From a virus, in the IMG/VR virus record IMGVR_UViG_3300009124_000020: 52,201 nt of DNA; one strand, given 5' to 3'. The notes under the pieces are model-generated. The model searched no databases and was not told the origin of the DNA. It worked only from the letters and a program-made list of their open reading frames with translations. Below, in pieces: positions 6,767 to 8,893 of this stretch (positions are counted from its first letter, which is position 1; each line of letters starts with the position of its first letter). The position numbers and the translations under genes are program-made.

Positions 6767-6795
6767 TTGAGTTGAAGCAGTAAATACTGTATAAT
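6767..6795 (+). promoter_or_regulatory. Sigma70-like promoter upstream of the acyltransferase gene
   Basis: TTGAGT (6767-6772), 17-nt spacer, TATAAT (6790-6795). It sits in the 91-nt gap before the ATG at 6851. Confidence 0.45.
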
Positions 6796-6850
6796 TAAGG
6801 GAGACAGATACTAGCAATGATGTAGAGTACACATAGGATACCTACTCATA

Positions 6851-7279
6851 ATGTCCCCAACACATAAAGAACAATATAATTCACTTGTCGTAGATGGATT
6901 AAAACTCTTTGGGTTATCTAACTTTCACAGGAATTATACTTTAAAGGAGTTCACGAATTATTTTCTGTACCCTTTAAACCATAAAAAGATTCGATTTTTT
7001 TATGAAGGTAAAGTGCCGATAGGATTAGTTACTTGGTGCTTCTTATCTAATGAAAAATCAGAAGGCTTCTTCAAAGATGAGTATGTCATTCAAGAAGAAG
7101 ATTATAGAGCAAACGAAGGCGACAAACTTTGGTGCATAGAGTTTATAGCACCATTCGGAGATGCCTTAAAAGTTGCTAGGGGAATGCAAGAACATTTCCG
7201 AAACCTTTACCCAGGTAAACACAAAACAAGTTGGAAACGATTTGGAAGACAAGAACAACATGGGAAAGGATATTTTTAA
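6851..7279 (+). CDS. RTX toxin-activating lysine acyltransferase (HlyC/CyaC/ApxC, TAAT family) homologue
   Basis: Alignment recalled against E. coli HlyC. LHRNW (catalytic His23) corresponds to FHRNY. SWANLSxENE corresponds to TWCFLSNEKSE. DRKWFIDWIAPFGD corresponds to DKLWCIEFIAPFGD. At 142 aa the size fits the family. Confidence 0.7.
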   Translation: MSPTHKEQYNSLVVDGLKLFGLSNFHRNYTLKEFTNYFLYPLNHKKIRFFYEGKVPIGLVTWCFLSNEKSEGFFKDEYVIQEEDYRANEGDKLWCIEFIAPFGDALKVARGMQEHFRNLYPGKHKTSWKRFGRQEQHGKGYF

Positions 7280-7294
7280 TTAGGATAATTTATT

Positions 7295-8893
7295 ATGGGA
7301 TCTAAAAAAACTACTAATGTTACTAATGAAACAGGTTTGGGAGATGACCAATTTACTACTCTGTCCGAAGGACAAGAAGGCATTAGTGGTCAAGTTACAG
7401 ACCTAAGTACAAATATTGATACGAGATTTGATACTGTAGACGATACGCTTGACTCAGGCTTTCAGGGAGTTGGCGATCAACTTAATACAGTAGGAGATAC
7501 TCTAGGAACTCTAGGTACAGATATGTCTACAGGCTTCGGTAATGTCCAAGCCGATATATCTGGATTAGGCACAGACATGACTCAAGCCTTTGAGGGTCAA
7601 GCTGAAACAATTAATACAGGATTTGACACTCTAGGAACTCAAGTCGGAAATGAAGCGTCTGCTATTACAGCTAATGTTGATACTCGTACAGGAGAATTAA
7701 GCGACCAAATAGGTACAGGTTTTACTGACGCTGCAACTGCTATGGGTACAGGCTTCACAGATCTTACTGATGTTGTTACCACAGGTAATACAACTCTAGG
7801 AGATCAACTTACTGCAACAGGCGATGCTTTAGGTAAACAAGCAGAAGCTGGGTTTGGTGCTGTAACTTCTAATTTAGATGATGCCAAAGCTGCAATCATA
7901 GCTGGTCAAGGTGATATGACTACCTTGATAGAACAGTATGGTGGTAACTTAGATGCTTACGCTACTTCATTACTTGAGGGACAAGCTAGTGCTCGTGAGC
8001 AAGTAGGAACTCTACAAACAGGACTAGATGATTTCGCTTCTCAATACGCAGATGATTACACACTCGCTGCTCAACAAAGAAACGAACTTCAACAAGGTAT
8101 CCAAGGTGGATTTAATCAAGCAGCAGAACAAGCTGGTCAAATAGCAAATGCTGCTGCAACAGAAAGAATGAATTTATCTCAAGGTCTAACGGATCTTGGG
8201 GCAGGTCAATCAGCTATTGGTGATACTATAGGTTCAGGCTTTAAAGGTGTTGGACAAGCGATTAGAGACTCTGAAGGTAATATCGTAGGACAAACAGTAC
8301 AAAGTGCTCAGAACCTAGATACTGCCATTAGAGATGCTGAAGGAAATGTTATTTCTGAAACAGCTAATTATGTTCAAGACGCAGAAGGTAATATCATTGG
8401 GGTACAAAACAAAACCTTTACAAGAATAGCTAAAGAACTTGCTGTAGGTTTTGATGATGGTTCTCAAGAGACATTAGCAGCTAAGACAGATTTTAATAAT
8501 AGACTAAGTGGAATTAAAAATGTTCTTAACACTCAAGGCGATCAATTAAGCGATAATCTAAGAGACTCTTACACAAAACTATCAAGTTCATTTGATGAGC
8601 AAGGAAAACTAATTGCTAACTCAACAGACAGTTTTGGTAATAGGATTTCAAGAGCAATAGATGCTCAAGGTAATCTACTAATAGCTACCTTTAATGAGAC
8701 AGGTGGAAAACTAGACCAACAATCTCTCAGCATCAATCAGATGATGGGTCAAATGGAACAGTTTGGTTATCGACCTGGTTCTAACATAAACATGGGAACT
8801 CTGTCCCCAGCAAGTCGTAGAGCCGAAGCTGCTTATGTTCAATCTGGAAGAGGTCTTATGACACCTTTCACAAGGACTAGAGAGGTAGCCTAA
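7295..8893 (+). CDS. Repetitive Gly/Thr/Asp/Gln-rich protein, probably virion-associated. It is a candidate neighbour-encoded substrate of the acyltransferase
   Basis: A 532-aa ORF starting 15 nt after the acyltransferase gene. It has degenerate (T/S)GFxxxG repeats and a four-fold D(A/S)(E/Q)GN(I/V/L)(I/V/L) repeat. Canonical RTX GGxGxD nonapeptides are absent. Confidence 0.5.
   Translation: MGSKKTTNVTNETGLGDDQFTTLSEGQEGISGQVTDLSTNIDTRFDTVDDTLDSGFQGVGDQLNTVGDTLGTLGTDMSTGFGNVQADISGLGTDMTQAFEGQAETINTGFDTLGTQVGNEASAITANVDTRTGELSDQIGTGFTDAATAMGTGFTDLTDVVTTGNTTLGDQLTATGDALGKQAEAGFGAVTSNLDDAKAAIIAGQGDMTTLIEQYGGNLDAYATSLLEGQASAREQVGTLQTGLDDFASQYADDYTLAAQQRNELQQGIQGGFNQAAEQAGQIANAAATERMNLSQGLTDLGAGQSAIGDTIGSGFKGVGQAIRDSEGNIVGQTVQSAQNLDTAIRDAEGNVISETANYVQDAEGNIIGVQNKTFTRIAKELAVGFDDGSQETLAAKTDFNNRLSGIKNVLNTQGDQLSDNLRDSYTKLSSSFDEQGKLIANSTDSFGNRISRAIDAQGNLLIATFNETGGKLDQQSLSINQMMGQMEQFGYRPGSNINMGTLSPASRRAEAAYVQSGRGLMTPFTRTREVA

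Follow-up and report, generated by a model that had tools for sequence, protein, structure and literature searches.

The virus record IMGVR_UViG_3300009124_000020, a 52,201-nucleotide stretch of DNA analysed at its full length and referred to here as the window, encodes a HlyC/ApxC-like acyltransferase (6851-7279, + strand) directly upstream of a large protein with a Gly-start N-terminus (7295-8893, + strand). The enzyme is assigned to the toxin-activating acyltransferases (TAATs; HlyC, CyaC, ApxC). We use the name AT for the acyltransferase that occupies this genomic slot, which in the window is the product of the open reading frame (ORF) 6851-7279. On the evidence of aligned loci and translations, the occupant of the slot, whether a TAAT or a GNAT, is linked to a Gly-start or leader-Gly N-terminus in the next protein. 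As a tentative explanation, which we judge the best of those considered, we propose that AT fatty-acylates the N-terminus of the 7295-8893 protein, which it would recognize through its MGSKK… Gly start.

It is poorly understood how the ejection proteins of short-tailed phages pass from the capsid across two membranes. The gene that precedes the ejection proteins in T7, P22, and many podoviruses, known as IVP-A, has no assigned biochemical role. The window provides this slot with an occupant from a proven protein fatty-acyltransferase family, in which the catalytic His and an acidic partner are retained, and the comparative work offers a concrete acceptor in the Gly-start N-terminus of the next product.

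A TAAT-family enzyme in the late operon

AT is a protein of 142 amino acids (aa) with an ATG start and the candidate catalytic residues His26 and Glu97. The three HlyC-type motifs listed in the initial annotation are all found in the sequence, namely FHRNY (residues 25-29), TWCFLSNEKSE (61-71), and LWCIEFIAPFGD (93-104). A profile search supports the family assignment made there: the ORF scores 62.9 bits (E = 3.6e-17) against the Pfam family HlyC (PF02794), for which the curated cut-off is 25 bits, and the match covers positions 8-104 of the 127 in the profile. The Pfam scan of the ORF returned HlyC only, with PF11090 and PF11039 not matched. The ORF also matches phrog_20210, a family of unknown function, and, in a HMMER search, the sequence of ApxC in PDB entry 4WHN (E = 2e-6). 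ApxC is, to our knowledge, the only TAAT with a solved structure. An AlphaFold2 model of AT, built from 14 homologues (pLDDT 82.1), has a fold that agrees with the sequence matches. Foldseek retrieved 4WHN as its best match in the PDB (E = 4.5e-7, probability 1.00, TM-score 0.70), with generic GNATs trailing at E values of about 0.2.

In the HMMER alignment, His26 of AT is matched to the His of LHRKW in ApxC, which we take to be His24 from the ApxC sequence and the numbering of the published dyad, and Glu97 pairs with the Asp of FIDW (catalytic Asp93). The catalytic pair of TAATs is a His/Asp dyad, formed by His24 and Asp93 in ApxC and by His37 and Asp107 in CdiC (PMC8510554). On one point the sequence departs from the initial annotation: the catalytic Asp is replaced by Glu97, with the carboxylate kept. 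Isolates and IMG/VR together supplied 68 distinct phage homologues of AT. Of these, 67 retain His26, position 97 is acidic in all (Glu in 57, Asp in 11), and both Trp94 and Arg130 are invariant. These residues are kept even as the overall identity among the homologues drops to about 36-40%. Because of the PF02794 match, the ApxC fold, and the conservation of these four positions, we regard the ORF as encoding a genuine TAAT-family member that is selected for its catalytic residues, with the change from Asp to Glu as the one reservation.

AT resembles HlyC, CyaC, and ApxC in family, fold, catalytic His, acidic partner, and length (about 140-170 aa), and also in that its gene adjoins that of a presumed substrate in the same orientation. 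It is shorter than ApxC (142 versus 172 aa) and, like most phage members, has Glu as the acidic residue. In contrast to the bacterial loci, no protoxin of the RTX (repeats-in-toxin) type, type I secretion system, or CdiA-like gene is present nearby: RTX and haemagglutinin-repeat Pfam domains were absent from the six neighbouring proteins scanned, and no CdiA-like gene was found. The initial annotation held that TAATs serve RTX protoxins exclusively. This is contradicted by CdiC, which attaches 3-hydroxydecanoate to Lys1467, an internal residue in the receptor-binding domain of class IV CdiA; the lipid helps CdiA to engage the outer membrane of the target (PMC8510554). CdiC provides the best functional analogy for AT, as a TAAT recruited to a non-RTX substrate that engages the envelope of another cell.

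The slot and the N-terminus that follows it

Genetic organization was compared in 79 IMG/VR loci with AT relatives by matching their ORFs to the window proteins. The window gene is located in a late operon between the tail fibres and a 532-aa repetitive protein, as originally described. In architecture A, which is seen in the window and the isolate CRP-235, AT is followed by a homologue of the 7295-8893 protein (7295-like), a lysozyme with small membrane proteins, a homologue of the window protein encoded from 10433 (10433-like), and a relative of a 189-aa window protein. In architecture B, which is the majority, AT is followed directly by a protein of 600-1000 aa, then by one of about 250 aa and by the 189-aa-like protein. 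The C-terminal half of this AT neighbour is homologous to the 10433 protein. The family of AT's immediate neighbour therefore varies from phage to phage. In every locus that has a 7295 homologue, it directly follows either a TAAT or a GNAT of a second slot family, fam2.

Whatever its family, the protein downstream of AT has a Gly-rich N-terminus, and it is with this feature of the neighbouring gene that the presence of AT covaries among relatives. At well over 130 viral loci with a TAAT or GNAT in the slot, the downstream protein begins with MG or with a short leader, an aromatic residue, and a Gly run. The motif spans at least four unrelated protein families (7295, 10433, siphovirus tail proteins, HTVC115P gp45). 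Members of the 7295 family start with MGGGGG(D)TTNVTNTGLGDDQY, with MGSKK(K) in the window and its closest relatives, or with MGGKK or MGGSP in others. The architecture-B proteins have a leader of about 17-25 residues (M..YNPFMPS..F......F) that ends in an aromatic residue or Arg and is followed by GGGG. A GGG is found within the first 45 residues of 49 of the 59 distinct AT-downstream proteins, the other ten having MGS, MGG, or a leader with GG, versus 11 of 331 control ORFs of at least 150 aa from the same loci (Fisher p ~1e-41, a value not corrected for phylogeny). Seven of these 11 controls are 10433-like proteins of architecture-A phages that carry a short leader of their own (e.g. MGFWSDTFGGG). 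In the window itself, only two of 63 ORFs have an MG start, and AT's neighbour (MGSKK…) is one of them.

Ten phages encode 10433-like proteins with neither leader nor Gly run, and no acyltransferase gene is found upstream in these: HMO-2011, CRP-1, CRP-9, CRP-207, CRP-345, HTVC033P, HTVC103P (for this protein), phiM6, Slicky01, and CHOED. Their proteins start with MA… (ML… in HTVC103P), and fam2 is absent from the whole genomes of all ten.

The second slot family was recognized in CRP-3, CRP-738, and CRP-212, which have 7295 homologues and no TAAT. A protein of about 150 aa is instead encoded directly upstream (CRP-3 gp28, CRP-738 gp29, CRP-212 gp27; loci L082-L084). The family also covers loci L095-L130, comprises proteins P0016-P0124, and corresponds to phrog_7642. 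It is annotated as ‘putative acyltransferase’ in CRP-738. Its members share an invariant WGRKGWxR motif, match no Pfam family, and show no similarity to TAATs that hhalign could detect (probability <4%). An AlphaFold2 model of fam2 (pLDDT 86.4) is a classical GNAT, with NatD/Naa40, which are N-terminal acetyltransferases, as top structural matches and 246 GNAT structural matches at E <=0.001. While fam2 thus differs from the window AT in fold and sequence, it occupies the same slot before 7295 homologues and precedes the same leader and Gly run. The 7295 homologues that follow fam2 share the leader of the architecture-B proteins (e.g. MGNPFLTIYGPGRYLNPRASGMIVFGGGGSSGP). The leader-FGGGG module is found downstream of fam2 in six of six isolates and in about 30 metagenomic loci (36 IMG/VR fam2 loci were compared), with the IMG/VR partners reading …LNPRxSGLI(V/C/A/T)F followed by GGGG, KGGGG, or KGDG. 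More distant fam2-like proteins precede …GLITFKGGGG in CRP-7, MFLIDLIKPQIAFGSGGGSSGGGGGG in the autographivirus CRP-118, and MGGSVGKSN in Vibrio phage VA-RY-3. Since the slot and the downstream leader-Gly module are the same, we consider the two unrelated acyltransferase families to be interchangeable before one N-terminal module. By analogy with classical GNATs, fam2 probably uses acyl-CoA or acetyl-CoA rather than acyl-ACP.

The same pattern is seen in siphoviruses. HTVC112P, HTVC026P, and HTVC111P encode a divergent TAAT between baseplate-type genes and a ‘putative tail protein’ of about 700-1100 aa that starts with MGGIVEAIV, MGGVVKSVVK, or MGGIIKKIIK. The downstream ORF starts with MG(G/K) in all 78 IMG/VR loci related to these siphovirus TAATs.

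The position of AT also matches a slot described for podoviruses. The internal virion protein (IVP) operon of these phages begins with a small non-structural gene, IVP-A, represented by T7 gene 13 and P22 gene 14; equivalents are found in epsilon15 and phiRIO-1-like phages, and different families fill the slot (PMC4819975). IVP-A proteins are required for morphogenesis, are not retained in virions, and were described as acetyltransferase-like by Hardies et al. (PMC4819975). By analogy, the window AT occupies the IVP-A slot, with the IVP identity of the downstream genes proposed from their size and synteny. IVP-A proteins (T7 gp13, PF11090; P22 gp14, PF11039/DUF2824) share with AT the slot, a similar size, and an acetyltransferase-like fold (the TAATs form a branch of the GNAT superfamily), but have no demonstrated enzymatic activity and no detectable sequence relation to it: hhalign comparison of T7 gp13 and P22 gp14 with the phage TAAT alignment gave probabilities of 3.9% and 0.6%, respectively. 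The 7295 and 10433 families likewise gave hhalign probabilities below 4% against P22 gp7 or T7 gp14, and the parallels are organizational.

One of these parallels concerns P22 gp7. Encoded by the gene after 14, this protein has 20 N-terminal residues removed by host OpdA according to its GenBank record, and its sequence, MLYAFTLGRKLRGEEPSYPE|KGGKGGADK, is made up of a leader and a Lys/Gly-rich mature end. Directly after a gp14-like gene, the gp7-family protein of phiSG1 has a leader and then KGGDGG. Leaderless members start with MGGSSGDNG in APSE-2 and MGGAISGIGG in IME_EC2, and that of Vibrio phage 1.067.O is annotated as MSMGFVAAG, with an internal MG. Given the likeness of these P22 gp14/gp7-type loci, the window arrangement can be viewed as the TAAT version of a widespread podovirus module. 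T7 gp14, encoded after gp13 (1229-1819 in locus L132), starts with MCWAAA…, and the Gly rule fails in T7.

The presence of a TAAT gene in phages is not new, since the label ‘toxin-activating lysine-acyltransferase’ has been given to homologues in seven marine phages in culture, CRP-235 and six HTVC phages (112P, 103P, 104P, 115P, 026P, and 111P). CRP-235 gp30, HTVC112P gp46, HTVC103P gp34, HTVC115P gp46, HTVC026P gp47, and HTVC111P gp50 are 26-40% identical to the window AT; they were annotated by similarity only, and their function is not discussed. ‘HlyC’ also appears in the legend of a pelagiphage genome map. CRP-235 shares the full synteny of the window (AT, 7295-like, lysozyme, 10433-like). 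The initial statement that no phage system of this kind is described therefore holds for function, but not for the genes, which are annotated, or for the acetyltransferase-likeness of IVP-A, which has been noted (PMC4819975). A literature search, of incomplete coverage, found no work on phage protein acylation or on any connection of IVP-A with a Gly-rich N-terminus. The novelty would seem to lie in the link between the slot occupants, the Gly-start or leader-Gly N-terminus downstream, and the P22 gp7 precedent.

Proposed N-terminal acylation and competing explanations

In the explanation that we tentatively favour, the partner of AT is the product of the next gene, 7295-8893, which AT would recognize by its Gly-start N-terminus. 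Late in infection, an acyl chain would be transferred in the cytoplasm from host acyl-ACP onto this N-terminus, with either the Gly2 alpha-amine (after Met removal) or the adjacent Lys4 or Lys5 as the acceptor. The lipid would provide a hydrophobic handle, either for incorporation into the virion or, as the genome is delivered, for insertion into the host envelope. The simplest reading is that the N-terminal alpha-amine is acylated, or an adjacent Lys where there is one, as in MGSKK, MGK, and FKGGGG, because only Gly is conserved, no Lys is, and the slot occupants belong to amine-acylating superfamilies. We infer that AT is an enzymatically competent N-acyltransferase; the donor of the acyl chain, the precise atom that accepts it, and a role in entry or assembly are likewise inferred. 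With respect to the earlier proposal that the phage lipidates one of its own proteins, the link to a neighbour is upheld (the 7295 protein here, the 10433 family elsewhere), but no Lys is conserved and P22 gp7 was found unmodified at its N-terminus.

Eukaryotic viruses offer an analogy for such a lipid. Picornavirus VP4 and reovirus mu1 are myristoylated penetration proteins that are released at entry to breach a membrane. On the long acidic 7295-8893 protein, a lipid would be a plausible membrane anchor while the envelope is being penetrated, by analogy with VP4, mu1, and CdiC-lipidated CdiA. N-myristoyltransferase resembles AT in being a GNAT-superfamily enzyme, and its substrates begin with Met-Gly, as does the candidate substrate of AT; it differs in being a host enzyme that uses acyl-CoA, and the homology is at superfamily level only. 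If AT acts as proposed, this would represent the first case in phages of a protein lipidation system that the virus itself encodes, the substrates of TAATs would extend beyond RTX toxins and CdiA, and the finding would bear on marine phages of SAR11, SAR116, and Roseobacter, which are very abundant.

A more general proposal, which is doubtful at present, is that tailed phages lipidate their own genome-delivery proteins by means of a small protein of acyltransferase fold (a TAAT, a classical GNAT, or possibly a member of the T7 gp13 and P22 gp14 families) whose gene leads the ejection-protein or tail-tip block and which N-acylates the Gly-rich mature N-terminus of the next product. This end would be exposed either by removal of Met or by cleavage of a leader of about 20 residues. 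Such a system would be a bacterial-virus counterpart of VP4 and mu1 and would give IVP-A genes a biochemical function.

Several observations weigh against N-terminal acylation. The window AT has Glu97 at the position of the catalytic Asp of ApxC, and the window partner has only MGS, with no Gly run. The divergent pelagiphage subgroup of TAATs, that of the siphoviruses above, lacks the aligned His26, although its acidic position falls in a W/L-H-I-D motif. The TAAT gene of HTVC103P and HTVC104P is found with early/replication genes, at a distance from that of the candidate partner, which implies a different timing or an additional target. The ORF starts of metagenomic loci are those of the longest ORF, and the locus counts are not phylogenetically independent. 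All characterized TAATs acylate the epsilon-amines of internal lysines, often in Gly-Lys motifs (PMC8510554). No acceptor Lys column reaches 70% in the alignments of 28 7295-family and 57 10433-family proteins, and most partners of the MGGGGG type lack Lys near the N-terminus (many of them throughout the first 40-90 residues). Finally, Edman sequencing of a virion-incorporated P22 gp7 fragment gave Lys-Gly-Gly-Lys-Gly (Leavitt et al., PMC8402733). Since the end was readable, its alpha-amine was free and both lysines were unmodified in the sequenced fraction. Deletion of the gp7 leader leaves about 60% of the burst (PMC8402733). The Edman result means either that P22-type IVP-A proteins are not enzymes that act on that end or that the modification is partial or transient.

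The point on HTVC103P and HTVC104P is qualified by a further observation. The candidate partner in HTVC103P and HTVC104P is still encoded in the late block (gp58, MGSVFKRVRK…) and is a homologue of HTVC115P gp45, which directly follows a TAAT. As the TAAT of HTVC103P and HTVC104P is located elsewhere, adjacency of AT and partner is very frequent rather than absolute. In HTVC103P, the gp34 gene (3980-4429 in locus L133) adjoins that of an ssDNA-binding protein. The want of a conserved Lys extends to an ‘ATVKGQ’ segment, in which Lys is replaced by Arg or Gln in some members.

The free Lys-Gly-Gly-Lys-Gly end of P22 gp7 in virions also favours the serious rival of N-terminal acylation, namely that AT, like T7 gp13 and P22 gp14, is a non-catalytic assembly factor, the peptide groove of which binds the Gly-rich N-terminus and chaperones the partner into the procapsid without acyl transfer. 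Such a role would fit the need for IVP-A in morphogenesis and its loss from the virion (PMC4819975), the ‘probable scaffold protein’ label that Pfam gives to T7 gp13, the filling of the slot by at least two unrelated folds or families, and the pelagiphage subgroup without the aligned His. We nevertheless consider it unlikely: conservation of His26 in 67 and of an acidic residue 97 in 68 of the 68 homologues, at about 36-40% identity, is hard to explain without catalysis, and the superfamilies of both slot occupants are acyl-transferring ones. Moreover, only the unblocked fraction is read by Edman sequencing, and the enzyme family of P22 is a different one. Should acylation be refuted, the reuse of acyltransferase folds as N-terminus-specific assembly chaperones would also be informative.

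The known chemistry of TAATs leads to another alternative, in which AT acts as a classical Lys acyltransferase on internal lysines of the ejection proteins (the Gly-Lys sites of the 7295 protein, the 10433 protein, or the 189-, 694-, and 1194-aa proteins) and the Gly-rich N-terminus is a docking element or unrelated. Besides the precedent of the characterized enzymes (PMC8510554), this is consistent with three Gly-Lys motifs in the 7295 protein (residues 180-181, 437-438, 471-472), two of which are conserved in close relatives, and with the Lys-rich N-termini of several partners (MGSKK, MGKIFKP, FKGGGG, and KGGKGG in P22). The Gly-Lys sites, however, do not align between the window 7295 protein and CRP-235 gp29, and the missing Lys columns and the many Lys-free MGGGGG-type N-termini noted above also make this alternative improbable. 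The conserved feature of AT's partner is an N-terminal Gly rather than the internal Gly-Lys site of TAAT substrates.

Promoter, genome context, and neighbouring genes

The initial annotation reported a promoter, TTGAGT-N17-TATAAT, upstream of AT. This sigma-70-like element is present at 6767-6795 (+ strand) and is conserved in four relatives: the -35, the -10, and a leader of about 55 nucleotides are near-invariant in L003, L004, L005, and L008 despite a differing upstream gene. The 91-nucleotide intergenic region upstream of AT is better conserved than the surrounding genes. Promoter-like hexamer pairs are not enriched in this A+T-rich block (41 found versus 59.6 expected from shuffles). While the hexamers alone are weak evidence, 6767-6795 is accepted as a probable promoter because of its conservation in relatives. 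T7 offers a parallel in promoter phi13, which is upstream of gene 13.

The leader extends from the promoter to the AT start codon (6796-6850, + strand) and contains a possible hairpin over the ribosome-binding region. It is near-invariant in five relatives although the proteins of the relatives are only about 75% identical. RNAalifold predicted a stem in 6796-6850, but no pair showed a compensatory change, and no Rfam family matched this leader, which may be a translational control element.

The description of AT as moron-like was not upheld. The gap between its stop codon and the next gene is 15 nucleotides, no terminator was found after the AT gene, its GC content is typical (34.7%, versus 37.2% for the genome), and its presence covaries with the Gly feature of the neighbouring gene. 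For these reasons, the gene is not moron-like, and the promoter is not private to AT but heads the whole operon of ejection-protein and lysis genes. The same features bear on the possibility that AT is a host-directed or accessory enzyme of the moron type, which would acylate a host or toxin-like protein so as to alter host physiology and for which the late-operon location would be incidental. Its own promoter-like element, the early location of the TAAT beside the ssDNA-binding protein in HTVC103P/HTVC104P, and studies cited in PMC10504331 that report other phage acetyltransferases on host proteins are consistent with this view. The possibility is nonetheless a distant one given the typical GC content, the short gap without a terminator, the adjacency to a Gly-start virion protein across well over 130 loci and four protein families, and the absence of RTX or CdiA-like genes from the window in the Pfam scan of six neighbours.

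The window looks like a complete genome, from the gene order that continues across its ends, and is that of an uncultured marine podovirus related to the HMO-2011/CRP roseophage group. A megablast search of 6400-9200 against 50,697 phage records gave no nucleotide match. The protein P0001, from a 52.6-kb metagenomic contig, is 98% identical, and the phage is known only from metagenomes; by protein similarity, the isolates that come closest are CRP-235, CRP-3, CRP-738, and CRP-212. The genes are ordered portal, capsid, tube A, tube B, fibres, promoter, AT, and large uncharacterized proteins, with portal, major capsid, tail tube A, and tail tube B at 43.8-52.1 kb and the tail fibres at 0.1-6.5 kb. 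A 545-aa protein in the position of tail tube B (50437-52074) has phrog_5107 ‘amidase’ as its best PHROG match (E = 5e-57); this label probably reflects a mislabelled structural family. The 749-aa tail fibre or spike upstream of AT (4221-6470) has a C-terminal Peptidase_S74 chaperone domain. It is followed by a 95-aa ORF (6472-6759) with a homologue, among the loci retrieved, only in the near-identical L003.

AT's neighbour (7295-8893, + strand), the likeliest substrate or partner, is a 532-aa protein that is acidic, Lys-poor, and repeat-rich, and starts with MGSKKTTNVTNETGLGDDQF. Its start codon is forced by an in-frame TAA at 7286-7288, nine bases upstream. It contains 70 Asp and Glu residues and 12 Lys, lacks both a signal peptide and a lipobox, and shares 30% identity with CRP-235 gp29. 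Weak sub-threshold Pfam matches to Apolipoprotein and Baculo_PEP_C suggest a largely helical repeat protein.

Lysis genes follow. A small protein with a hydrophobic C-terminal stretch (8899-9171, + strand) has weak matches to Pfam XhlA/haemolysin-like and phrog_1193, and is probably lysis-related. Since phages without AT (CRP-1, CRP-9, CRP-207, and HMO-2011) also encode small proteins of this layout before their 10433-like gene, it is not linked to AT. Next are an endolysin (9185-9751, + strand; phrog_7, E = 5e-52), a holin (9748-10131, + strand; phrog_3427, E = 4.5e-27), and a small protein with a hydrophobic N-terminal stretch (10134-10430, + strand). The 7295-like gene of architecture A is always followed by such a lysozyme/holin cassette, which would fit a function of the 7295 protein in lysis, as a lipid-anchored spanin-like or membrane-disrupting factor activated by AT. 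The apolipoprotein-like matches would agree with amphipathic helices, and TAAT-activated RTX proteins are membrane-active. In the majority architecture, however, AT precedes a 10433-like protein with no lysis genes nearby, the siphovirus partners are ‘putative tail proteins’ of about 700-1100 aa, and the 7295 protein is very acidic and has neither of the export signals sought. A lysis function is accordingly the least probable of the explanations considered.

The 10433-12088 gene (+ strand) encodes a repeat protein of 551 aa that is Q/N-rich, has a hydrophobic C-terminal tail, and, in the window, lacks the Gly motif. A homologue is found in 63 of 81 AT loci. The tails of the family are short and hydrophobic (…GGMAAAAIALI, …FLASIVFG) in the window and in L011, L020, L029, and L047. 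The family is reminiscent of P22 gp7, another Q/N-rich protein, which has a Gly-zipper at its C-terminus, though homology is not detectable. Some members have Peptidase_S74 at the C-terminus (CRP-235 gp25, 15041-17575 in L001; CRP-3 gp24, 6474-8333 in L082), and CRP-235 gp25 additionally has an N-terminal LysM domain. This suggests that the ‘NLSNxQQ’-repeat proteins of the 10433 family are trimeric fibres that contact peptidoglycan.

Four further genes (12101-18765, + strand) encode proteins of 135, 189, 694, and 1194 aa, which are candidate analogues of IVP-B, C, and D by size and position. Pfam, PHROG, and PDB searches returned no informative matches for these four or for the 10433 protein, and the IVP assignment is therefore based on size and on synteny with T7 and P22. 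Of the four, the 189-aa protein is conserved in 49 loci. A single tRNA-Arg gene (anticodon TCT; 19100-19176, - strand) marks the point where the rightward late operon meets a leftward gene block.

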